Part shown: piece after piece, positions 5,993 to 63,463 of the stretch
Layout of the letters: each line of letters begins with the position of its first letter
How positions within the stretch are numbered: the stretch's first letter is position 1
Source of the DNA: Octopus sinensis
Lineage: Eukaryota
Length of the DNA stretch: 64,000 nucleotides
Direction: 5' to 3'
NCBI RefSeq assembly: GCF_006345805.1
Contig: NC_043000.1
Coordinates: 58,900,001 to 58,964,000 of the forward strand
Made by a program: the position numbers and the translations under genes
Notes under the pieces: generated by a model
What the model was told of the DNA's origin: nothing
What the model saw: the letters and a program-made list of their open reading frames with translations, nothing else
Database searches by the model: none

Positions 5993-6048
5993 GTATATAT
6001 AAATATGTATATATATATATAACATATATATGTATATATATGTATATA
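5783..6048. repeat. (TA)n microsatellite
   Basis: Visible dinucleotide run. Confidence 0.95.
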
Positions 6049-6352
6049 TCATCATCATCATCATTTAGCGTCCGTTTTCCATGCTAGCATGGGTTGGACG
6101 GTTTAACTAGGGTCTGTGAAGCCGGAAGGCTTCATCAGGCCCAGTCAGATTTGGCAGTGTTTCACGGCTGGATGTCCTTCCTAACACAACCACTCCATGA
6201 GGTAGTGGGTGCTTTTTACGTGCCACCTGCACAGGTGCCAGACAGAGCTGGCAAACAGCCATGAACGGATGGTGTTTTTACGTGCCACCGGCACGGGGCC
6301 AGGAGGGGGCTGGCAACGGACACGAACGGATGGTGCTTTTACGTGCTACTGG

Positions 6353-6354
<2 letters not shown>
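6049..6354 (-). mobile_element. RTE-type LINE 3' tail with (GAT)n end
   Basis: catcatcat...ttccatgctagcatgggttggacgg is the same 3' end as the ORF-bearing copy at 49611-50310. Confidence 0.75.
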
Positions 6355-8394: not shown

Positions 8395-8452
<58 letters not shown>

Positions 8453-8515
8453 TATGTATATAATATGTATATATATATGTATATATATATATATATGTAT
8501 ATGTATATATATATG

Positions 8516-8549
<34 letters not shown>

Positions 8550-8567
8550 TGTATATGTATATATATG

Positions 8568-8600
<33 letters not shown>

Positions 8601-8640
8601 GTATATACATATAGTATATATATATATGTATATATATATA
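8213..8640. repeat. Degenerate (TA)n microsatellite
   Basis: Visible low-complexity run. Confidence 0.95.
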
Positions 8641-8812
8641 AAAAATAATAGTTATCGCCATACTAATATGGCATTCTTATAAAAATAAGAAAAAAGCTGT
8701 CCGCTATTAGCTCCATGAGGCCATCGCCTTAAGTTAGCTATTTGATACACAAACTGTATCCATATAACCTTCGAACAAGGGAGGTCAGTCGCTCCACACT
8801 ACTTGACCGGCA

Positions 8813-8854
8813 GCTACAGACGCGTTTCGGAGTATTGCCCCTTTTCAATGCAGC
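8813..8854 (-). ncRNA. Minimal type I hammerhead ribozyme, copy 1
   Basis: Minus strand GCUGCA-UUGAAAA-GGGG caaua CUCC-GAAA-CGCG-UC-UGUAGC: 6-bp stem I, 4-bp stem II, palindromic stem III (ACGCGU), GUC cleavage triplet. Confidence 0.8.
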
Positions 8855-9172
8855 GTAGCCAGCCAGTAGGTGTCGCTTCCGACAATCTCTGTTCGATGGT
8901 TTTATTTACCTAGTTTCGGTGGAATACATCCACTTGTTTTCAATAATAGAAATATTAAAATAACTAAGTCTCTCTAAAGAGAACAGCGGCAGCGTTCCCG
9001 GAAAATAATAGTTATCGCCATACTAATATGGCATTCTTATAAAAATAAGAAAAAAGCTGTCCGCTTATTAGCTCCATGAGGCCATCGCCTTAAGTTAGCT
9101 ATTTGATACACAAACTGTATCCATATAACCTTCGAACAGGGAGGTCAGTCGCTCCACACTACTTGACCGGCA

Positions 9173-9214
9173 GCTACAGACGCGTTTCGGAGTATTGCCC
9201 CTTTTCAATGCAGC
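9173..9214 (-). ncRNA. Minimal hammerhead ribozyme, copy 2
   Basis: Identical to copy 1, 360 bp away. Confidence 0.8.
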
Positions 9215-9531
9215 GTAGCCAGCCAGTAGGTGTCGCTTCCGACAATCTCTGTTCGATGGTTTATTTACCTAGTTTCGGTGGAATACATCCACTTGTTTTC
9301 AATAATAGAAATATTAAAATAACTAAGTCTCTCTAAAGAGAACAGCGGCAGCGTTCCCGGAAAATAATAGTTATCGCCATACTAATATGGCATTCTTATA
9401 AAAATAAGAAAAAAGCTGTCCGCTTATTAGCTCCATGAGGCCATCGCTTAAGTTAGCTATTTGATACACACAACTGTATCCATATAACCTTCGAACAAGG
9501 GAGGTCAGTCGCTCCACACTACTTGACCGCA

Positions 9532-9574
9532 GCTACAGACGCGTTTCGGAGTTATTGCCCCTTTTCAATGCAGC
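9532..9574 (-). ncRNA. Minimal hammerhead ribozyme, copy 3
   Basis: As copy 1, with a 1-nt insertion in loop II. Confidence 0.75.
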
Positions 9575-10110
9575 GTAGCCTTGTTCGAAGGTTATATGGA
9601 TACAGTTTGTGTATCAAATAGCTAACTAAGGCGATGGCCTCATGGAGCTAATAAGCGGACAGCTTTTTTCTTATTTTTATAAGAATGCCATATTAGTATG
9701 GCGATAACTATTATTTTCCGGGAACGCTGCCGCTGTTCTCTTTTAGAGAGACTTAGTTATTTTAATATTTCTATTATATATATATATATTGTATATATAT
9801 ATATATGTATATATATGTATATATATATATATATATGTATATGTATATATATACATATATATGTATATATATATATGTATATATATATGTATATATATAT
9901 GTATATATATATATGTATATATATATATGATTTTCAATCACGGTAATGGCAGTACTCCGGAAGAAGGTTGCGGGTGATCCATAGGTCAGGAAGAATGGTA
10001 ACAATAATCCGTAGGTGCAAAAAATCCATGTATATATATATATGTATGTATATATATATATATATACATATGTACATATATATATATATACTATATATGT
10101 ATATATATAT

Positions 10111-33950: not shown

Positions 33951-35921
33951 GTAAATCAATCACTTCACTGAAATATTAAAATCATTTTAATCTTTTTTTT
34001 TTTTTTCATGTTGTCTTTAATCTTTTCTGAAAATAATTATGATAAAACAAATTTGAGCTTGTATTTTCCAAAACCTTAAAATATTGTGTCTACGGCAATG
34101 AGTCTGATATGACCAATTTTGTACCAGTGTTTTGAGTTGAAATCCTTTTGTGAGTTAATAAATACCACCAGGATACTAAGTCAGCCAACTAAAACTCATT
34201 TCTTACAGACTGGCCAGTACCAAATCAAAGCATACAAACTAAAGAAAAGTGCAATATAAAAGGTTCTCTACTTATCATCTAGTTTCTTTAAGAGATACTT
34301 TTTGGGCAGGTATATAAATTTTAGCCAAGGTTTCAGATCCGTCCCATTAGTTTATTAGTTCAAATCCTTTCTCAGACATTCTGATATATAATTAAGAAAG
34401 TTACTGTTTACCCCATAATTTAGGAAATTGGTAGGAGTATTGCTTTACTATAAAATTATCAGGTTGTTATGACAAACAAATCTTAGAAAAAGAGTTGTTA
34501 AAAGAAAAATTCCTGGGAAAGTAACCATGTTGTCAATCGTAATTATTGATAATATGACTAGTTTATAAAGAAAAACAGCAATAACTGCACAGACAACTCA
34601 CTCAAGTTTGTAGTTGTGAAGAACAATGACTTTTCACATTGATACAAGGCCATATATTTGTAAAGGAAATGCAATGTTTACTCTGCAAGATTTGAATTCA
34701 GAACATGCAGGAATAAAACCAAATAATGTAGAGTATTTAGTCTGGCACTCTTCTATGTCAGTTACCTAATTATAATGATTTCTTATATTGGTACAAGGCT
34801 ACAAATTTGTAGAGGAGTATAATTGATTGAATCATCTCTAGGAGATGTTAGATACTTATTTTACTGAGCCCCACTCAAGAATAAAGAATATTATTTCATA
34901 ATATAGAAGAGAAAAAAATAAATACCTCAAGGCATTAAAGCTTGGCTCTGCAATGTTTCTACCACTCTCTTAACTTTGCAGTAAAGAATAATTAATATTT
35001 TCATTTTCAAGTAAGGAATGACAAGTGTTAATGAAATAGATATTATTCTGGGATAGAGAAAAGTGAACTAAATTTGTGAATTAGTTTTCAGTGCAGATTT
35101 ATAAATAAAAGTCACCTGCTTTTGAAAAGCATAACTGCTAATCCTAAATTCCACAGCTGTCTATTAAGACATTTATCTCCCTTGGTAGGAGTACTGGGTT
35201 TTTACATGTGCCTTCTCCGCAATCCAGCATTATAAACTTACAAAACTCATCGGTTATGATATTCTCACTCCTTACAGAGTGTACTAAAATCACCTGTGAT
35301 GTGCAGTTTGAATGAAGTAACCTGAGACAGTAAAAGCTAAGTGTCTTTACCATTGACTCAGTGTATGAATAAATCTGAAATAGGAGTTATGACCCTTCCA
35401 CCAGCACATGTATCCTCTATCTATTAATAAACAAAAACATTTGTGTTTGCTATCAGCTGTGATAATGCTTTAGATTTTCTTAATCTGCTTATTCTCCTGT
35501 TTAACATTTACCAATGTTCAAACTGAAGAATGGGCTCCTCTTATCTTCAATAATGATCAAATGAATATATATTGGATCATCATCATTGTTTAACATCCTC
35601 TTTCCATGCTAGTATGGATTGGATGGTTTGACTGAGGACTGGCAAGCCAGGAGGCTGCACCAGGCTCCAATCTGATCTGGCAAGGTTCCTACTTCATGTG
35701 GCAAGATATTAAAATATGAGGTAGGGGAATATGAATGGAGCTAATTTCTATAGGGTGGGGTGGGGGTCCAGAGGTAATGTCTTCATGTTGGGAGAAGCAA
35801 GTGGTTAACAGAACTGAGAGAGGCTGGCCAAAGACAAAACATGAGGAAATCAAATTGATATTAATTGTATGTGAATTAAAAGGAAAATGTTTCAGCTTTG
35901 TTTTTTTTTTTTTATATATAT

Positions 35922-38900
35922 CGTGCTGTGGGCACATAACAAACACCATCCGATCATGGCCGTTCGCCAGCCTCATCTAGCACCTGTGTCGGTGGCACAT
36001 AAAAACCATCCGAAGACCCGGCAAGACTAGTCAGGCCATAACCCATGGCCCCTACCTGGGACGTAGTCAGTCCACCTGTGCATACCTTCCTCCTTGTGAT
36101 ACTTGTGAAGGCCTGTTGAGGCAAGTGAAAATCAAAATCAAATCAAAATAGATGAACATCAATGGAATTTGTATCTTTGTGGTACCAGTGCCGGTGGCAC
36201 ACAAGAAATCCATCCGAACGTGGCCGTAGTCAGTACCGCATCGACTGGCCATCGTGCTGTGGGCACATAACAAACACCATCCGATCGTGGCCGTTCGCCA
36301 GCCTCATCTAGCACCTGTGTCGGTGGCACATAAAAACACCATCCGAAGACCCGGCAAGACTAGTCAGGCCATATCCCATGGCCCCTACCTGGGACGTAGT
36401 CAGTCCACCTGTGCATACCTTCCTCCTTGTGATACTTGTGAAGGCCTGTTGAGGCAAGTGAAAATCAAAATGAAATCAAATCAAATCAAATCAAAACAAA
36501 TCAAAATAGATGAACATTAATGGAATTGTATCTTTGTGGTACCAGTGCCGGTGGCACACAAGAAGACCATCCGAACGTGGCCGTAGCCAGTACCGCACCG
36601 ACTGGCCTCCGTGCTGTGGGCACATGACAAACACCATCCGATCGTGGCCGTTCGCCAGCCTCATCTAGCACCTGTGTCGGTGGCACATAAAAACACCATC
36701 CGAAAACCCGGCAAGACTAGTCAGGCCATAACCCATGGCCCCTACCTGGGACGTAGTCAGTCCACCTGTGCATACCTTCCTTCTTGTGACACTTGTGAAG
36801 ACCTGTTGAGGCAAGTAAATCAAAACAAATCAAAATAGATGAACATCAATGGAATCTGTATCTTTGTGGTACCAGTGACGGTGGCACAACTTTGTGGTAC
36901 CAGTGCCGGTGGCACACAAGAGAACCATCCGAACGTGGCCGTAGCCAGTTTCGCATCGACCGGCCTCCGTGCTGTGGGCACGTAACAAACACCATCCGAT
37001 CATGGCCGTTCGCCAGCCTCATCTGGCACCTGTGTCGGTGGCACATAAAAACACCTTCGAAGACCCGGCAAGACTAGTCAGTCCACCTGTGCATACCTTC
37101 CTTCTTGTGACACTTGTGAAGACCTGTTGAGGCAAGTGAAAATCAAATCAAATCAAAATAGATGAACATCAATGGAATTTGTATCTTTGTGGTACCAGTG
37201 CCTGTGGCACACAAGAAATCCATCCGAACGTGGCCGTAGTCAGTACCGCATCGACTGGCCATCGTGCTGTGGGCACATAACAAACACCATCCGATCGTGG
37301 CCGTTCGCCAGCCTCATCTAGCACCTGTGTCGGTGGCACATAAAAACACCATCCGAAGACCCGGCAAGACTAGTCAGGCCATATCCCATGGCCCCTACCT
37401 GGGACGTAGTCAGTCCACCTGTGCATACCTTCCTCCTTGTGATGCTTGTGAAGGCCTGTTGAGGCAAGTGAAAATCAAAATGAAATCAAATCAAATCAAA
37501 TCAAAACAAATCAAAATAGATGAACATTAATGGAATTGTATCTTTGTGGTACCAGTGCCGGTGGCACACAAGAAAACCATCCGAACGTGGCCGTAGCCAG
37601 TACCGCACCGACTGGCCTCCGTGCTGTGGGCACGTAACAAACACCATCCGATCGTGGCCGTTCGCCAGCCTCATCTGGCACCTGTGTCGGTGGCACATAA
37701 AAACACCTTCCGAAGACCCGGCAAGACTAGTCAGTCCACCTGTGCATACCTTCCTTCTTGTGACACTTGTGAAGACCTGTTGAGGCAAGTGAAAATCAAA
37801 TCAAATCAAAATAGATGAACATCAATGGAATTTGTATCTTTGTGGTACCAGTGCCTGTGGCACACAAGAGAAAACCATCCGAACGTGGCCGTAGTCAGTA
37901 CCGCATCGACTGGCCATCGTGCTGTGGGCACATAACAAACACCATCCGATCGTGGCCGTTCGCCAGCCTCATCTAGCACCTGTGTCAGTGGCACATAAAA
38001 ACACCATCCGAAGACCCGGCAAGACTAGTCAGGCCATATCCCATGGCCCCTACCTGGGACGTAGTCAGTCCACCTGTGCATACCTTCCTCCTTGTGATAC
38101 TTGTGAAGGCCTGTTGAGGCAAGTGAAAATCAAAATGAAATCAAATCAAATCAAATCAAAACAAATCAAAATAGATGAACATTAATGGAATTGTATCTTT
38201 GTGGTACCAGTGCCGGTGGCACACAGAAAACCATCCGAACGTGGCCGTAGCCAGTACCGCACCGACTGGCCTCCGTGCTGTGGGCACGTAACAAAACCAT
38301 CCGATCGTGGCCGTTCGCCAGCCTCATCTAGCACCTGTGTCGGTGGCACATAAAAACACCATCCGAAAACCCGGCAAGACTAGTCAGGCCATAACCCATG
38401 GCCCCTACCTGGGACGTAGTCAGTCCACCTGTGCATACCTTCCTTCTTGTGACACTTGTGAAGACCTGTTGAGGCATGAAAAATCAAAACAAATCAAAAT
38501 AGATGAACATCAATGGAATCTGTATCTTTGTGGTACCAGTGACGGTGGCACACACTTTGTGGTACCATGCCGGTGGCACACAAGAGAACCATCCGAACGT
38601 GGCCGTAGCCAGTTTCGCATCGACCGGCCTCCGTGCTGTGGGCACGTAACAAACACCATCCGATCATGGCCGTTCGCCAGCCTCATCTGGCACCTGTGTC
38701 GGTGGCACATAAAAACACCTTCCGAAGACCCGGCAAGACTAGTCAGGCCATATCCCATGGCCCCTACCTGGGACGTAGTCAGTCCACCTGTGCATACCTT
38801 CCTTCTTGTGACACTTGTGAAGACCTGTTGAGGCAAGTGAAAATCAAATCAAATCAAAATAGATGAACATCAATGGAATTTGTATCTTTGTGGTACCAGT

Positions 38901-41900
38901 GCCCGTGGTACCAGTGCCTGTGGCACACAAGAAATCCATCCGAACGTGGCCGTAGTCAGTACCGCATCGACTGGCCATCGTGCTGTGGGCACATAACAAA
39001 CACCATCCGATCGTGGCCGTTCGCCAGCCTCATCTAGCACCTGTGTCGGTGGCACATAAAAACACCATCCGAAAACCCGGCAAGACTAGTCAGGCCATAA
39101 CCCATGGCCCCTACCTGGGACGTAGTCAGTCCACCTGTGCATACCTTCCTTCTTGTGACACTTGTGAAGACCTGTTGAGGCAAGTGAAAATCAAAAAAAT
39201 CAAAATAGATGAACATCAATGGAATCTGTATCTTTGTGGTACCAGTGACGGTGGCACACACTTTGTGGTACCAGTGCCGGTGGCACACAGAGAACCATCC
39301 GAACGTGGCCGTAGCCAGTTTCGCATCGACCGGCCTCCGTGCTTGGGCACGTAACAAACACCATCCGATCATGGCCGTTCGCCAGCCTCATCTGGCACCT
39401 GTGTCGTGGCACATAAAAACACCTTCCGAAGACCCGGCAAGACTAGTCAGTCCACCTGTGCATACCTTCCTTCTTGTGACACTTGTGAAGACCTGTTGAG
39501 GCAAGTGAAAATCAAATCAAATCAAAATAGATGAACATCAATGGAATTTGTATCTTTGTGTACCAGTGCCTGTGGCACACAAGAAATCCATCCGAACGTG
39601 GCCGTAGTCAGTACCGCATCGACTGGCCATCGTGCTGTGGGCACATAACAAACACCATCCGATCGTGGCCGTTCGCCAGCCTCATCTAGCACCTGTGTCG
39701 GTGGCACATAAAAACACCATCCGAAGACCCGGCAAGACTAGTCAGGCCATATCCCATGGCCCCTACCTGGGACGTAGTCAGTCCACCTGTGCATACCTTC
39801 CTCCTTGTGATGCTTGTGAAGGCCTGTTGAGGCAAGTGAAAATCAAAATGAAATCAAATCAAATCAAATCAAAACAAATCAAAATAGATGAACATTAATG
39901 GAATTGTATCTTTGTGGTACCAGTGCCGGTGGCACACAAGAAAACCATCCGAACGTGGCCGTAGCCAGTACCGCACCGACTGGCCTCCGTGCTGTGGGCA
40001 CGTAACAAACACCATCCGATCGTGGCCGTTCGCCAGCCTCATCTAGCACCTGTGTCGGTGGCACATAAAAACACCATCCGAAAACCCGGCAAGACTAGTC
40101 AGGCCATAACCCATGGCCCCTACCTGGGACGTAGTCAGTCCACCTGTGCATACCTTCCTTCTTGTGACACTTGTGAAGACCTGTTGAGGCAAGTGAAAAT
40201 CAAAACAAATCAAAATAGATGAACATCAATGGAATCTGTATCTTTGTGGTACCAGTGACGGTGGCACACACTTTGTGGTACCAGTGCCGGTGGCACACAA
40301 GAGAACCATCCGAACGTGGCCGTAGCCAGTTTCGCATCGACCGGCCTCCGTGCTGTGGGCACGTAACAAACACCATCCGATCATGGCCGTTCGCCAGCCT
40401 CATCTGGCACCTGTGTCGGTGGCACATAAAAACACCTTCCGAAGACCCGGCAAGACTAGTCAGGCCATATCCCATGGCCCCTACCTGGGACGTAGTCAGT
40501 CCACCTGTGCATACTTCCTTCTTGTGACATGTGAAGACCTGTTGAGGCAAGTGAAAATCAAATCAAATCAAAATAGATGACATCAATGGAATTTGTATCT
40601 TTGTGGTACCAGTGCCCGTGGTACCAGTGCCTGTGGCACACAAGAAATCCATCCGAACGTGGCCGTAGTCAGTACCGCATCGACTGGCCATCGTGCTGTG
40701 GGCACATAACAAACACCATCCGATCGTGGCCGTTCGCCAGCCTCATCTAGCACCTGTGTCGGTGGCACATAAAAACACCATCCGAAGACCCGGCAAGACT
40801 AGTCAGGCCATATCCCATGGCCCCTACCTGGGACGTAGTCAGTCCACCTGTGCATACCTTCCTCCTTGTGATACTTGTGAAGGCCTGTTGAGGCAAGTGA
40901 AAATCAAAATGAAATCAAATCAAATCAAATCAAAACAAATCAAAATAGATGAACATTAATGGAATTGTATCTTTGTGGTACCAGTGCCGGTGGCACACAA
41001 GAAGACCATCCGAACGTGGCCGTAGCCAGTACCACACCGACTGGCCTCCGTGCTGTGGGCACGTAACAAACGCCATCCGATCGTGGCCGTTCGCCAGCCT
41101 CATCTGGCACCTGTGTCGGTGGCACATAAAAACACCTTCCGAAGACCCGGCAAGACTAGTCAGTCCACCTGTGCATACCTTCCTTCTTGTGACACTTGTG
41201 AAGACCTGTTGAGGCAAGTGAAAATCAAATCAAATCAAAATAGATGAACATCAATGGAATTTGTATCTTTGTGGTACCAGTGCCTGTGGCACACAAGAGA
41301 AAACCATCTGAACGTGGCCGTAGTCAGTACCGCATCGACTGGCCATCGTGCTGTGGGCACATAACAAACACCATCCGATCGTGGCCGTTCGCCAGCCTCA
41401 TCTAGCACCTGTGTCGGTGGCACATAAAAACACCATCCGAAGACCCGGCAAGACTAGTCAGGCCATATCCCATGGCCCCTACCTGGGACGTAGTCAGTCC
41501 ACCTGTGCATACCTTCCTCCTTGTGATACTTGTGAAGGCCTGTTGAGGCAAGTGAAAATCAAAATGAAATCAAATCAAATCAAATCAAAACAAATCAAAA
41601 TAGATGAACATTAATGGAATTGTATCTTTGTGGTACCAGTGCCGGTGGCACACAAGAAAACCATCCGAACATGGCCGTAGCCAGTACCGCACCGACTGGC
41701 CTCCGTGCTGTGGGCACGTAACAAACACCATCCGATCGTGGCCGTTCGCCAGCCTCATCTGGCACCTGTGTCGGTGGCACATAAAAACACCATCCGAGCG
41801 TGGCCGTCTGCCAGCCCCGTCTGGCACCTGTGTCGGTGGCACATAAAAAACACCATCCGAGCGTGGCCGTTTGCCAGCCTCGTCTGGCACCTGTGTCGGT

Positions 41901-49230: not shown

Positions 49231-49610
49231 AATTTGTCTAATGGTCTACAATCTCTCATGACACAAACTAATTGCATTAACATACAAAATCATAAGTTAT
49301 TTGAAAGCAGAGATAGTGAACGATATTTGTTGTCAGTAATGATATGAAATTATTGGATACCTTGTCAACCTTTATATCAGTGGCATAACAGAAAACTATT
49401 TCTGAAAGTAACATTAATATCCCTTACACGTTGTACTTAATCAATTGTTAATATTTGATTGGAGATTATGATTTTGGCATAATCCATTACTTTTAGGTTT
49501 CTCATTCTGTCAGACTCTTTAGATTTAATTTCTTCATAATCATAAAATTTTGACATATTTTGCATATCTTCAGGATTTTAAAAAGATCGTTTAATATGTT
49601 CTATCATTAC

Positions 49611-50310
49611 ATCATCATCATCATCATTTAGCGTCCGCTTTCCATGCTAGCATGGGTTGGATGCCCTTCCTAACGCCAACCACTCCGTGAGTGTAGTGGG
49701 TGCTTTTTACGTGCCACCGGCACAGGTGCCAGACGGGGCTGGCAAACGGCCATGGTCGGATGGTACTTTTTACATGCCACCGGCACGGGAGCCAGGCGAG
49801 GCTGGCAACGGCCACGATTGGATGGTGCTTTTTACGTGCCACCGGCACAGAGGCCCGTTGGGGCGGCACTGGCAACGGCCATGTTTGGATGGTTCGCTTA
49901 CGTGCCACCGGTACTGGTATCACAGCTACAATTTCCATTGATGTTGATCGATTTTGATTCTGATTTCCACTTGCCTCAACAGGTCTTCACAAGTAGAGTT
50001 TTGTGTCCCAAGACGGAAAGGTATGCACAAGTGGACTGGCTACATCCCAGGTAGAGGCCATGGGTTATGGTCTCACTTGTCCTGCCGGGTCTTCTCACGC
50101 ACAGCATACTTCCATAGGTCTCAGTCTCTAGTCATTTCCTCAGTGAGACCTAAAGTTCGGAAGTCGTGCTTCACCACTTCGTCCCAGGTTTTCCTGGGTC
50201 TACCTCTTCCACAGGTTCCCTCAACCGCTAGGGTGTGGCACTTCTTCACACAACTATTTTCAGCCCTTCTCGTCAAATGACCATACCAGCGCAAACGTCT
50301 CACTTGCACA
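49611..50310 (-). mobile_element. 5'-truncated RTE (BovB-like) LINE: ORF C-terminus, 3'UTR and (GAT)n tail
   Basis: RRLRWYGHLTRR...GRGRPRKTWDEVVKHD is the typical RTE C-terminus. Confidence 0.9.
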
Positions 50311-51650: not shown

Positions 51651-53416
51651 CTAGCAGAATTGCCCGGCGTTGCTCGGGGCTGAATTGCTTGAAAGTACTG
51701 TTAATGATTGCACTGAATTATGATGATTATTCAGGCAAATATTGATATAAGCTTACGGTGGGAGATAAGGACTTAACGATCAAACGTGTGCCATTGCATT
51801 GTTTTGGGGGAACCAAATTTCTGATGAGCATTATAGGGGCACCAACTTTAAGCTTGAGAAAGTGTGGTGGTAGTCCGGGGTGCTCAAGGAATTGAGTACC
51901 TCTATTGGATAGTTGATGACGTCCTCTGGGTCAGGAGTTGTATCGATAGACTGATATACATAGACTTCCCCAGGAATGAGTTTTAGCATTTCATCATTAA
52001 TATGGTGAACAGTTTTATTCCTCGGGGCCAGTATAGCCTTTTTGCCAATCCAATCCATATTCTGATAATTAGCTTGTAGATCTGGGAACACTGCATCTCT
52101 GAGATCAGAAGGCGTCTTAACAATGGTACAAATGGAATCGATGGCAATATTACCAGTTTCATCCCCTGGTATTTTGCCTTCGCCAAGTGCAAGGAGGGTG
52201 TGAGGAAATGCTGCTGATGTGATATTACGTCGCATATGAGCACGCATATTGGTGTGAAGTTTGAGAGTTACTTCCGTTTATTTTTAAAAATATGCATTAA
52301 AATGGGAAAAAATGATGGTAAATTATTTGTAAAATCATAGACTCATCTTAGACGCGCGCTAATACCCAGAAGGGCTCGATATGAATCACGACTATAAGAT
52401 ACCCGGTTTTGGTTAAACTGCATCGCAAAATGTGGGAGTAGTTAGGAATCTAAATCGGAGTAGACAGACACACAACCTTTCTTTTATATATAAATATTTT
52501 CGTCCTAAAAAACTTTGTATGGATTGAATGGTTACCTCTATGGAAATATATACACGCACATTATACATACATGTGTGTATAGATGAATATATAAATACAT
52601 TTAAATATCTATATACACTTTTGGGCGATCTTTCTGTTTCTTAGAGATAACTTTAGATCTTATTTTCGTGCTAAAAAACTTTGTATGGAGTGAATGGTTA
52701 CCTCTATGGAAATATATACACACACGTTATACATACATGTGTGCATAGATGAATATATAAATAGATTTATATATCTATATACACTTTTGGGCGATCTCTG
52801 TGCTACTTAGAGATAACTTTAGATCTTATTTTCGTCCTAAAAAACTTTGTGCGGAGTGAATGGTTACGTGTATGGAAATATATACACACACATTATACAT
52901 ACATCTGTGTATAGATGAATGTATAAATACATTTAAATATCTATATACACTTTTGGGCGATCTTTCTGCTACTTGGATATAGGTCTTATATTCGTCCTAA
53001 AAAACTTTCCTGTCACACACTCACGCACGCGCACACACACACACACACGCACTCACTCACACGCACGTTAGCTTACAATTTTATTTATATATTTGCGTGT
53101 CTATGTGTGTAAAGAGGAAGTGGCAGACTGAAAGAGTCACTCACTACAAAAAGTGAATTACTTTCATTTTATTCGTTGCACACTGTGCGTGTGGTGTAAA
53201 CCACATTAAGAAAAGCATTTGACATACACACCAGAATGTGAGTTTTCTGTAAATTTTGCTTAATTGGAGTTTAAATTTTAAAAACTGGACCTGGCACGAC
53301 CCGATGCATTCTACTCTTAAAAATGCTAGGTAAATTGTAATTGAAGAAATCCTATATTGTAGATTTCTATAAGTGACAAAGGGAGGCAGATAAAATCTGC
53401 CTTTTATAATAAGAGA
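51651..53416 (-). mobile_element. Non-autonomous Helitron with a Pif1 helicase fragment and internal ~166-bp tandem repeats
   Basis: Minus strand A|TCTCTTATTATAAAAG 5' end; 3' hairpin cccgagcaacgccggg then CTAG|T; peptide KAILAPRNKTVHHINDEML...YPIEVLNSL. Confidence 0.88.
52495..53008. repeat. Three ~166-bp tandem units inside the Helitron
   Basis: cgt(c/g)ctaaaaaacttt recurs at 52501, 52667, 52833 and 52993. Confidence 0.9.
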
Positions 53417-56720: not shown

Positions 56721-57097
56721 GTCTGTTGCTTTATTTTTTTACTCAAATGTTTTCTATGTATTTTGTTAAATGTCAAGAATGACATCCTACTTTTAAACTA
56801 ATACTTTTCTTTTCTCAATAAATTGTATAGTATATTATTGTTATATACTACACTAAAAGCTACAAGATACATGTATGGGTTTAGTTTTGGATATTTTTTA
56901 GTAAATGTAGATACAATGATATAATATTAACGTTAACTACCACATGTACCACCAGTGGTTTGTAGCAAATTTCACAAAACAGTCATATGCACCACCAGTG
57001 GTACATTTTCATAATTTGAGAAAATATTTTATTTTGTATCTTTGACATGGTTTCAAGGATATTTAAATAACATGATTGCTAAATATTAAAGCTTGAT

Positions 57098-57558
57098 TCT
57101 ATATTTAAGAGATGAGGAATTATGTACATTATTTACATTCTCATCTTGTTTGTTGTTAACACATTTCGGCTGATATACGCTCTAGCCTTCTTCAGGTATC
57201 TTGGGGAAATTTCGAACCTGGGTTCTCATTCGTAAGGTATTTTCGATGTTATTATTGTTCAGGTCACTGCTTGGAATCAAACTCGGAATCCTGAGGTTAG
57301 TAGCCCATGCTCTTAACTGCTACACCATATGGCATAGGGGTTAAGAGCATGGGCTACTAACCCCAAGATTCCGAGTTCGATTCCAAGCAGTGACCTGAAC
57401 AATAATAATAATAATATCAAAAAATACCGTAGGAATGAAAACCCAGGTTCGAAATTTCCCAAGACGCCTGAAGAAGGCTGGAGGGTATATCAGCTGAAAC
57501 ATTTTGTTAACAACAAACAAGATGAGGACAAATATCCATCAAATGTAAATAATGTACA
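57098..57558. mobile_element. Palindromic head-to-head element: tRNA-like head plus hammerhead-like tail, 13-bp TSD
   Basis: Arms of ~200 bp inverted around ccatatgg (57325-57332); ATTAAAGCTTGAT at 57085-57097 and 57559-57571. Confidence 0.8.
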
Positions 57559-57867
57559 ATTAAAGCTTGATAATGAAATATTGTTAAAAAGCAAAAAAAA
57601 TTACATTTATATAATATAATGAACCTATTGTATACAGTGATCAGGTGCACTAAATTTCTTTGTAATTAAATAGTATGCAGTGTTACCAGAAATTTAAAAC
57701 TTTATTTCCTATCTAAAAAATGAAATAAACATTTCCTGAGACACTATAGCTGTTTTTACAGCTTAACTTACTGTGCAATCTTTCAAAGCATGATAGACAC
57801 AGCACAGGCTTATTTTCACACTTATTACACACAGTCTTCACTCTTCTTACTTTCTTGGCTGTGACTG

Positions 57868-58785
57868 CATCATCATCATCATCATCATCGTTTAACGTCC
57901 GCTTTCCATGCTAGCATGGATTGGACGGTTCAACTGGGGTCTGGCAAGCCCGAAGGCTGCACCAGGCCAGTCAGATCTGGCAGTGTTTCTACAGCTGGAT
58001 GCCCTTCCTAATGCCAACCACTCCGAGAGTGTAGTGGGTGATTTTATGTGCCACCGACACAGGTGCCAGACAAGGCTGGCAGACGGCCACGCTCGGATGG
58101 TGTTTTTTTATGTGCCACCAACACAGGTGCCAGACGAGGCTGGCGAACGGCCACGATCGGATGGTGTTTGTTACGTGCCCACAGCACGGAGGCCAGTCAA
58201 TGCGGTACTGGCTACGGCCACGTTCGGATGGTTTTCTTATGTGCCACCGGCACTGGTACCACAAGGATACAAATTCCATTGATGTTCATCTATTTTGATT
58301 TGGTTTGATTTGATTGTCGTTTAATGTCCACTTTCCATGCTAGCATGGGTTGGACGATTTGACTGAGGACTGGCTAACCAGATGGCTGCACCAGGCTCCA
58401 ATCTTGATCTGGCAGAGTTTCTACAGCTGGATGCCCTTCCTAATGCCAACCACTCTGAGAGTGTAGTGGGTGCTTTTACGTGCCACCAGCACGAGGGCCA
58501 GTCAGGCGGTACTGGCAACGGCCACGCTCAAATATGTTTTTTTTTACGTGCCACCTGCACAGGAGCCAATCTAGCAGTACTGGCAACAACCTCACTCGAA
58601 TGTTTTTTCACGTATCACCAGCACAAGTGCCAGTAAGGCGATGCTGGTAACGATCATGCTTGAATGGTGTTTTTTACGTGCCACCGGCACAGAAGCCAGT
58701 TAGCCGCTCTGGCAACGATCATGCTCGGATGGTGCTCTTAGCACTCCACTAGCATGGATGCCAATCATTGAATTTGATTTTGATT
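57868..58785 (-). mobile_element. Two adjacent RTE 3'UTR/tail copies
   Basis: (CAT)n-cgtttaacgtccgctttccatgctagc; 57868-58316 is a close reverse complement of 41590-42080. Confidence 0.85.
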
Positions 58786-60399: not shown

Positions 60400-61837
60400 G
60401 ATAATGATTTTTTAAGCAAATTATTCTATGAAACCACCTTCAGGTTCAATGGCTGCTTCAATGCTGGACCAAAATCACTGGCATGCTGACACTATATGGT
60501 CCTTATTCATTTCTGACATCACCTGGACAATGGTGGCCTTCAGTGAGGCTATGGTATTATCAAGATGACGATTAGTCTCCTTTTCAGCAGTGCTCCACAT
60601 GTTGTAGTCCATGGGGTTCAAATATGGCAAGTTTGTAGGCCACATATTGGGTGTTACATAATCCTAAAGATTCTTGGGTGGTTAGGGCCTTGTGAGGAGG
60701 TGCTGAGTTTTGTTGAAGCACATATGGCCTTCCATTGCATGCTTCATCAATCCAGGACTTGATAAGAGTTTCCAGTACCTCAATGTGTCCAGCAGCATTA
60801 ATTCTACGACCCTGTGAAAGATAGTAGTGAGGCATCACATGACCATCGCAACTCACCACACCTAAAACCGTAACAGTTGCTGGAAATTTTGTGAGCATCA
60901 CTCTGGGTACTTTGGAAGGTTTTGCACATAACCACCTACCATTTCTTGTTAGACTTTTGATCCTGGTTGAAGATTTTTACGTCAGTGAAAGACCAAAACA
61001 TGCCTTGTTCATGAAGGTTTTTCACTTTAAGTAACCATTTTGAACAGATGAGATGGTTTTCTTGTGTCTTTGCAGACACAAATTGGTCTTTGCTCATTAC
61101 ATAGGACTTGCATAGACTGTCACGATCTACCAAAGTTCTGATAGTCCACTCTGACACCCAAAGTTCTTTAGCAATGGACATCATTGATCTTCTGGGGTTT
61201 TCATCAATAATATTTTGAACATCATCATTTAGCATCCGCTTTCCATGCTAGCATGGGTTGGATAGTTCAACTGGGGTCTGGGAAGCCAGAAGGCTGCACC
61301 AGGCCCAGTCTGATCTGGCAATGTTTCTACGGCTGGAAGCCCTTCCTAACGCCAATCACTCCGTGAGTGTAGTGGGTGCTTTTTGCATGCTACCGGCACA
61401 GGTGCCAGACAGGGCTGGCAAACGGCCACGGTCGGATGGTGCTTTTTACGTTCCACCGGCACGGGGGCCCAGACGAGGCTGGCAACGACCACGATCGGAT
61501 AGTGCTTTTTACGTGCCACCGGCACGGGGTCAGGCAAGGCTGGCAATGGCCACGATCGGATGGCACTGGCAACGGCCACGTTTGGATGGTGTCCTTTTAG
61601 TGTGTGATACAGCTGAACCATTACCACCATGTGCTTCCAGTTCCAACCGAACTTTGTGTACAAATGATCTTGCAAAATTTAGAAAGTTCCAAATCTTTAA
61701 ATCACTCTGTATGTCTTTTAATTCCTTGAGTTAGCATGATATCTTGAAAGGGTTATCTGAAAAAAAAATGATACGCTAAATAATTTGCAGGTGTTATGAA
61801 CTAAAAACGAAATGTCCTCAAATGCCCCCACATCCTG
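60400..61837 (-). mobile_element. Tc1/mariner (maT / DD37D-like) transposase remnant interrupted by an RTE tail at 61220-61600
   Basis: FARSFVHKVRLELE (N-terminus), IIDENPRRSMMSIAKEL, FTDVKIFNQDQK, VLGVVSCDGHVMP...YVLQQNSAPPHKA. Confidence 0.8.
61220..61600 (-). mobile_element. RTE 3' tail nested in the maT element
   Basis: catcatcatttagcatccgctttccatgctagcatggg... Confidence 0.8.
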
Positions 61838-62035: not shown

Positions 62036-63463
62036 CTAGCAGCATAGCCCAGCGTTGCCCGGGTATGTAAGAGCCCCTAGTAGGCAACGACTAATCCCAA
62101 TCTAGTCCTTTCCCTCTAGGGAATGAAGGCGCATGTGTAGGTTGCAATGTCTTCTCTTCACTCGAATACTTCTGTGTATACAATGTTCCTAGCTGTCCCT
62201 TTGGGCGAAAACATGAAAACATCATTGTACCTCCCAACGCGTGAACAGCCCACGTAGAGTTGACCGTGGGTGAAGCACTGTTCGCCCAAATGTAACCCAG
62301 CGACTTGTAGCGTTTGGCCTTGGGATTTATTGATGGACATTGCGAAGCAGAGTTTAACAGGAAACTGAGAATGCCCAAAGTGGATTGGTAGGTCAGCGCC
62401 CAACGGTTGAAGGTGCATGCGTGGAATGAAGACGTCCTCTCCCTTCCCACAACCAGTAAGTATTGTGGCTGTTATTAAATGTGGTGCCAAATGTTTCACA
62501 ACCAGACGTGTGCCGTTGCACTGTTTAGGTGGAACCAAATTCCTGATGAGCATAATGGGCTCACCGACTTTTAACTTCAGGATGTGTGGCGGCAGGCTTG
62601 GCGGTTCAAGTGAATTCAGGAATTCAACAGGATAATCGGCAAGGTCGGTGGGGTCTGCTGTCCTATCTATAGATTTGTAGACGTGGACATCACCAGGAAT
62701 AGTTTCAAGTAGCTGGATATTGATGGAGTTGACGCTTGTATTTTTGGGTGCGAGAATAGCTCTGCCTGCCAGCCATTTTAGGTCGTGGAAGACAGCGTCC
62801 CGGAGGCTAGCAGGGGTGTTGACAGTGGTGCAAAGTGAGTTAAAAAGGTCGAATTGCGCCCCCTAGACAGTCTGTGGTTTGTGTTTAATACACAAATCGG
62901 TTTACTATGTGTGCCACATATGCTTTTATTAACCGATTTTTTCCAGTAATAAAGTATCGTATTGGAATAAAAAGGACCATATAGCTCCTTGGAGCAGACA
63001 TGATGCTCACTGTGAATTAAAAAAAAATTCCTGCCAATTTGTGAAAGATATTGTCAAAAATATGTCATCTTGAATTTGAACGCGATTTCCCAAAATGGCA
63101 TGATTTTATCGATTTTTTTCTGATGGTAAGGTATTGCATGGAAAACTAATGTCAGAATTAAGTTTCTTAGGGTAACATTAAGCTTCACCATGAGTTTGGT
63201 GAAAATCGATTGCAAGTTGTGAAAACTACAACAGAAAATGTGTTGCATATAAAAAGCTTAGATTCTCGACCCCATGTCGAATCTATCAATTTTTTTCAGA
63301 ACTGGGGGAAGTTTTCAAAATTTTCGCTGCGTTAGTTTTGAATTATGACATTGGGTTATGTGTGTGTCAAGTTTCATCAGAATCGGTTGAAAGCCGTGGT
63401 CAGGGTGAGGGTACAACCTGACAGACACACAGACAGACAAACTGCCGTTTATATAGAGAGAGA
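62036..63463 (-). mobile_element. Non-autonomous Helitron carrying the Pif1 helicase C-terminus
   Basis: 5' A|TCTCTCTCTATATAAAC; 3' hairpin plus CTAG|T; ORF CNGTRL...QFPVKLCFAMSINKSQGQTL...HGQLYVGCSRV...NIVYTEVF*. Confidence 0.92.

Follow-up and report, generated by a model that had tools for sequence, protein, structure and literature searches.

In a 64,000-nt stretch of the Octopus sinensis genome (NC_043000.1, positions 58,900,001 to 58,964,000; hereafter the window) lies a palindrome composed of two inverted arms that meet head-to-head around a self-complementary pivot, CCATATGG (Table 1). The arms are 86% identical, and the palindrome folds with a z-score of -31.9 against 100 shuffles. 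An exact 13-bp direct repeat, which has no other occurrence inside the window, directly abuts both arm ends. A first-pass annotation, made from the sequence, had proposed a single palindromic insertion with one target-site duplication (TSD); the coordinates and the exact repeat were reproduced, and a single insertion is supported. The arms differ in extent: at the 3' end the left one exceeds the right by about 25 nt, and 15 nt of the right arm are absent from the left. The tRNA-like head with A and B boxes that the same annotation described in each arm is present in the right arm, whereas the boxes of the left arm are decayed. The hammerhead core lies where it had been placed (core 57468-57474, stem II 57476-57495, GAAA 57496-57499, with its mirror in the left arm), and both arms show the decay of stems I and III that had been observed. 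We favor the interpretation that this unit belongs to a tRNA-headed Penelope-like element (PLE), that RNA polymerase III (Pol III), an enzyme ordinarily confined to small RNAs, likely transcribes the whole element, and that the element sheds thousands of copies resembling short interspersed elements (SINEs). We assign this interpretation a probability of roughly 0.6.

The palindrome unit is almost certainly the terminal repeat (pLTR) of an autonomous PLE, furnished with a tRNA-derived head. A 21-mer from the hammerhead has 6358 exact matches in the 2.72-Gb genome and its reversed control has none; since only exact 21-mers were counted, this number is a lower bound on family size. Directly upstream of the head in L021, one of the 30 best-match loci, is a GIY-YIG-like C-terminus. 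A search with this C-terminus returned 3367 candidates, of which 150 loci were scored, and in each of the best 20 of these (L031-L050, one being the query's own locus) the head follows a stop codon. DKG, reverse transcriptase (RT) and endonuclease (EN) motifs were read upstream of the head, both in individual copies and in the family majority, while downstream of the tail the sequence continues into the start of an open reading frame (ORF). L351 contains a true tandem junction, in which the pLTR stands after the stop and before the ORF start. The family majority, assembled from fetched loci, comprises 2652 bp per turn with approximately 835 codons that encode an RT and, at the C-terminus, a GIY-YIG domain. 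Within a tandem unit, the stop codon is followed after 29 nt by the tRNA-like head, and then come (AAT)n, the ATG, the hammerhead, the RT and GIY-YIG. When turn positions are numbered from the stop codon (1), tRNA +1 falls at 33 and the ATG at 148; the hammerhead core follows at 182, and cleavage is predicted after 217. The hammerhead falls in the first ~25 codons, and two 3' end sites lie ~125 and ~155 nt into the ORF. In L213 a 401-aa open frame runs from the ATG through the hammerhead into the RT, and the alignment with a relative from an unrelated source (P0003, 847 aa) starts at the residues encoded by the hammerhead, with 47% over 350 aa. Because the frame and the alignment both span the hammerhead residues, the 3' half of the apparent SINE is PLE coding sequence. 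In all, 1703 relatives were found, and nearly all of the 120 listed have RT domains, a few with GIY-YIG; a Pfam search of the decayed family copies missed the PLE domains. The involvement of Penelope machinery suggested by the first-pass annotation is therefore borne out by an RT/GIY-YIG ORF colinear with the unit, and the anticipated PLE sharing its tail exists, the tail running on into the PLE ORF.

Between RT and EN, the protein has no Zn-finger-like linker, in contrast to two Neptune-type families of the same genome, and a quick tree places the family far from these two. We have assigned it to the Penelope/Poseidon clade by architecture only, because the tree contained no named Penelope or Poseidon reference. 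The Neptune-type families, obtained from a Pfam GIY-YIG search of the genome, were set aside, as the tail is not common to them, and were used as controls. L197 (1253-3592) and L198 represent young Neptune-type families with near-intact ORFs, many identical-scoring copies and more open frames upstream, and the genome GIY-YIG search also returned Neptune-type rows with 781-aa frames.

Table 1. Features of the palindromic insertion in the window (positions 1 to 64,000)
Feature	Position	Strand	Supporting observation
Left TSD, 13 bp	57085..57097		Exact repeat
Left arm: pLTR copy, long 3' site (turn position ~298), with tail	57098..57328	-	
PLE tail, continued N-terminal coding sequence of the ORF; left arm only	57098..57122	-	
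Left-arm minimal hammerhead, decayed; lacking the stem III region and with mismatches in stems I and II	57158..57200	-	
Inferred PLE start codon, left arm	57227..57229	-	L213 frame and relative P0003
Left-arm tRNA-Arg-like head with decayed A and B boxes	57261..57328	-	
Self-complementary pivot between arms	57325..57332		L002 and L081 show the same pivot
Right arm: pLTR copy, short 3' site (turn position ~272), without tail	57329..57558	+	
tRNA-Arg(ACG)-like head; A box 57330-57340, B box 57375-57383	57329..57396	+	
(AAT)n spacer; length very variable between copies	57398..57417	+	
First ~41 codons of the PLE ORF; ATG 57435-57437; frameshifted here	57435..57558	+	L213 in frame into RT; P0003 alignment
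Decayed minimal type-I hammerhead within the ORF start, right arm	57463..57508	+	
Right TSD, 13 bp	57559..57571		Exact repeat

The head is supported as tRNA-derived, with A and B boxes, a feature of SINE2-type elements. Compared with fetched host tRNA genes of 10 isotype classes, it matches tRNA-Arg(ACG) at 51 of 73 letters from +1 (~70% identity) with a score of 68. Scores were 63 for Arg-TCT, 36-55 for eight further classes and 20+-5 for 2000 shuffles; an origin from tRNA-Thr was rejected on its score of 51. The acceptor stem is degenerate, which makes the head a remnant resembling a promoter and not a tRNA. Rfam matched neither tRNA nor hammerhead in the window, in four loci or in one head alone, and ARAGORN made no tRNA call at its default setting and gave noise at a relaxed one; both the tRNA likeness and the hammerhead were established by direct comparison. 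Among 80 relative loci and 14 same-genome PLE loci, those of the best 16 tRNA-like matches that were viewed appeared to be unrelated SINEs, their positions not having been systematically checked. The tRNA-Arg(ACG) that the head resembles is also encoded in a long tandem array on contig C2 at about 3.129-3.149 Mb (L224, L225), with dozens of units at ~206-bp spacing.

The first-pass annotation had predicted that a consensus would restore a minimal hammerhead, and the family majority does so. Besides the core, it has stems I and II of 5 bp each and an additional base ahead of stem II, and stem III is replaced by an ACGU palindrome; this is a minimal dimer-type form like that described by Cervera and de la Pena (PMC4209133, accessible text). 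The motif is complete in 9 of 28 arms of L002-L030. Three of the 18 arms that lack the hammerhead begin at the predicted cut, a cluster too small to call. The predicted fold of turn ~234-286 places the short 3' end site in a region closed by a 9-bp stem and has a small hairpin at the long site, similar to the stem loop at the RT start of the anole PLE. In a related PLE from a metagenome record (L256, about 2070-2210), two tandem hammerhead-like motifs follow the stop, one with a U3-A8 core variant, and the untranslated region is T-rich and without a tRNA head; these features were identified by eye.

The ends of the family were analyzed in 85 insertions, taken from the first 94 of 100 listed 21-mer matches, all on one contig (C1), after paired arms were merged and the duplicated L160 and L161 dropped, with the window copy extra; this sample requires an intact 3' 21-mer and is blind to the 5' end. 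The 5' ends fall in the ORF in 13 insertions, at turn position 0-15 in none, at 16-41 in 32, at 42-108 in 6, within the AAT run (109-135) in 25, and later in 9. Four of the 25 ends in the AAT run have an unchained head piece more than 1 kb away, and one has unchained ORF pieces. Per nucleotide, there are ~15-fold more 5' stops at 16-41 than at 42-108. In a set of 97 head-bearing arms, which includes loci chosen for a full head and whose automatic classes are imperfect, ends fall at 26-28 in 29 cases and at 2-24 in 2, and the sharpest pile-up is 6-7 nt before tRNA +1. Genome-wide, 17-mers number 4092 in the head versus 853 just upstream. Several of the 40 loci that continue into the ORF start are partial tandems, in which an ORF piece is joined to a unit starting at 20-39; four template jumps land cleanly at 27-28, and only two of the 40 run upstream of the head in tandem. 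In L338, L343, L352-L356 and L363 an ORF-start piece ending at turn 334-733 joins a head-starting unit, which suggests template jumps onto internal sites of another RNA.

The 3' ends are bimodal, at ~270-277 and ~299-307. An inverted part is present in 48 of 86 insertions, and 34 of 85 are two-ended; 31 of these 34 pair one short end, without the tail, with one long end that carries the 30-nt tail (P=4e-7). Direct repeats of 11-15 bp flank 15 of the 34 two-ended insertions versus 6 of 197 mismatched flank pairs. The window copy is typical of the family, with turn ends of 298/272 and a 13-bp TSD. In five insertions (L040, L105, L118, L156, L163) the tail is on the small arm, and both arms must therefore be RNA-templated. 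A pure fold-back origin of the palindromes was rejected on these five, as fold-back from a large arm cannot yield a tail on the small arm; it may still apply to symmetric insertions such as that of the window. The pairing of short and long ends fits the behavior of the anole PLE in vitro, where both strands are cut and extension begins at two internal sites (Frangieh 2024, PMC11167929, accessible text). There is a good likelihood, judged from the genomic ends, that priming occurs from both target strands.

The sharp 5' edge at the head and the absence of T4 runs (four or more consecutive T) from the sense strand are the grounds for invoking Pol III, and an RNA that starts at the head by Pol III is likely. 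At turn position 27, 13 nt ahead of the A box, a purine follows a pyrimidine, and a tRNA-type promoter would start at such a spacing. The sense strand of the majority (2652 nt) is free of T4 runs; 11 decayed long copies, 20 kb in all, contain 8, and two same-genome PLE ORFs of similar T content have 9 and 10. At least one run is present in 19/19 related ORFs (those 19 of 80 loci with a frame of at least 300 aa), and the 14 related ORFs with T at most 25% contain 59 runs in 17.6 kb. At the rate of these 14, the Poisson probability of their absence is 2e-4, composition being ignored. That Pol III makes the full coding RNA, 2.65 kb from end to end, with an ORF purged of terminators, so that the element is its own SINE factory and the paired ends record two-strand priming in vivo, is a tentative proposal that we put at a little under even odds.

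Several observations weigh against a Pol III-transcribed coding element. The absence of T4 runs is not significant relative to the codon usage of the ORF itself (P=0.068) or under Markov nulls (P=0.07 and 0.27), and the majority is likewise devoid of G4 runs. A small hairpin coincides with the 5' edge and could stop or redirect the RT. RNA reads from three raw runs of one study run equally in both directions, mirroring copy number, with no pile-up of starts or ends; among their loose ends, the stop-to-head junction was also found in another organism. Letters departing from the majority are common to the arms of one insertion in 0.70% of columns versus 0.43% for unrelated arms, a modest excess. 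Two frame breaks remain in the majority, and among the copies found, none of them fully intact, the longest open frame is 551 aa; the family thus appears inactive in the O. sinensis genome. Pol III RNA is uncapped. The promoter of the D. virilis Penelope is, in the accessible text, internal and of the initiator/downstream promoter element (Inr/DPE) type, like that of long interspersed elements (LINEs) (PMC2377424), and an argument has been made that the range of Pol III is too short for autonomous elements (Kojima 2024, PMC10886601, accessible text).

An alternative is an ordinary Penelope/Poseidon-type PLE transcribed by RNA polymerase II (Pol II), whose pLTR once gained a tRNA insertion. The head would then be a passenger or a promoter of short RNA, and the 5' pile-up would reflect RT stalling or switching at the hairpin. 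The known PLE promoter is LINE-like, the lack of T4 runs is borderline under self-derived nulls, inversions pivot on palindromes at the hairpin edge, and the RNA data show no defined start. However, the ends lie at the 5' base of the hairpin (26-27), past its unwinding, and include clean non-inverted jumps; the head sits exactly between stop and start codon; and every control PLE ORF has T4 runs. We regard the Pol II explanation as unlikely. The first-pass annotation instead saw a nonautonomous SINE that had borrowed a PLE tail. This was not supported, as the whole unit including the head is the pLTR of an autonomous PLE, and divergence is equal in short copies (5.3%, 29 copies) and ORF-bearing copies (5.7%, 27 copies). 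Both kinds share variants, mostly CpG decay, and there are no exclusive diagnostic letters, so no signal of a separate SINE subfamily was obtained. A distinct lineage descended from short Pol III-transcribed masters and mobilized by the PLE in trans could nevertheless be imagined from the excess of short over ORF-bearing copies (72 versus 13 of 85), from the retention in short copies of the A and B boxes and both RT start sites, which makes re-mobilization plausible, and from two non-CpG variants that are somewhat commoner in head-start copies (13/28 versus 7/21 and 7/29 versus 2/24). Against such a lineage stand the colinearity of the unit with the PLE's own pLTR, the equal divergence, and the same 5' edge in copies that continue into the ORF start; we consider it improbable. 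Our reading is that the short copies derive from RNA of the PLE itself through reverse transcription at the start sites closest to the 5' end of that RNA, although their re-mobilization is possible. A foldback DNA transposon or miniature inverted-repeat transposable element (MITE), whose terminal inverted repeats would mimic the arms, accounts for a long inverted repeat with a direct repeat outside it. The two-ended form is confined to 34 of 85 insertions, arm length is variable, the two ends differ (short versus long), TSDs measure 11-15 bp, and the unit belongs to an RT/GIY-YIG ORF; the colinearity with the PLE refutes this origin, whose likelihood is negligible.

The mechanism that we propose for the tRNA-headed PLE would begin with Pol III initiation at the G 6 nt before tRNA +1 and transcription of the full 2.65-kb turn, read-through being possible because there is no T4 terminator. 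The PLE protein would cut the two target strands ~13 nt apart, and the RT would start internally, at the short site on one strand and at the long site on the other. Priming at the repeat nearest the 5' end of the RNA would yield cDNAs of at most ~270 nt, which could anneal via short terminal palindromes to give head-to-head copies. Short head-to-head products of this kind would mean that the autonomous element sheds SINE-like copies unaided. The predicted hammerhead would self-cleave only as a dimer and is probably dispensable for insertion.

The window contains other repeats. Fragments of a Pif1-type helicase at 62158-62862 (-), matching Pfam Pif1_2B, and at 51831-52277 (-), recognized by eye with no Pfam match, are probably Helitron remnants. 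A tandem array at 35920-41797 consists of ~300-357 bp units of an element with 63-64-nt repeats and has a GC content of 50% versus ~32% around it; the same element is dispersed at 6034-6354, 49608-50094, 57875-58740 and 61210-61563. Duplications a few hundred bases long, both direct (98%) and inverted, are nested at 8440-9928 and could be an assembly artifact or another inverted insertion. A 130-aa frame at 60584-60976 (-) resembles a Tc1/mariner transposase by eye, with no Pfam match. Outside the window, a C2H2 zinc-finger array gene on the minus strand of L002 (197-1264) lies ~240 bp from a family insertion.

Ohshima and Okada reportedly described three tRNA-derived octopus retroposons in 1994, one of which is said to be ~270 bp and tRNA-Arg-related, and the short unit may already be named as a SINE there or in Repbase or Dfam. 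In the cephalopod repeat literature that was searched, as far as its text was accessible, the family is not described, and in the accessible full-text literature, which leaves out most subscription papers, no coding retrotransposon, PLE or otherwise, was found to carry a promoter derived from a tRNA. The usual division assigns coding retrotransposons to Pol II and only short noncoding ones to Pol III (PMC10886601, accessible text). A PLE driven by a tRNA promoter, if that is what the family represents, would break this division and raise the question of how an uncapped 2.6-kb RNA is translated. It would also provide a direct route to a SINE, without a separate fusion of head and tail. In practical terms, thousands of copies likely annotated as SINEs are PLE ends. 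The strict pairing of tailed and untailed ends is genomic evidence on the formation of PLE inverted insertions, a process called undefined in the accessible text of PMC8557442.

The family resembles the EN+ PLEs of the Penelope/Poseidon type, such as D. virilis Penelope and Anolis PAc, in its single RT-GIY-YIG ORF, pLTR, 5' truncation, partial tandems and inverted 5' copies. It also shares with them an optional 30-40 bp tail, a hammerhead overlapping the ORF start and two internal RT start sites (accessible text of Craig 2021, PMC8557442; Frangieh 2024, PMC11167929; Cervera 2014, PMC4209133); the anole PLE ORF begins in the hammerhead (PMC11167929). Unlike these EN+ PLEs, the octopus element has a tRNA-Arg-derived A/B-box head that fills the gap between stop and start, and a sense strand without T4 runs. 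The combination of Pol III and hammerhead, which the first-pass annotation did not recognize as well described, is already known from the schistosome SINE-like elements SMalpha and Sjalpha, short repeats with a Pol III-type promoter and a minimal type-I hammerhead (PMC6765202, PMC8490949, accessible text). The unusual part is instead a tRNA-type promoter inside a protein-coding PLE. SMalpha and Sjalpha are described as noncoding and often tandem, whereas the octopus unit is the pLTR of a coding PLE and occurs as single or head-to-head insertions. The TRIMp3 elements Cassandra, Helenus and Ajax likewise carry a small-RNA-derived Pol III promoter in a retroelement terminal repeat. They are, however, nonautonomous long terminal repeat (LTR) elements of 0.3-1.3 kb whose autonomous partners are expected to need Pol II (PMC10886601, accessible text), whereas the octopus element is itself a coding PLE.
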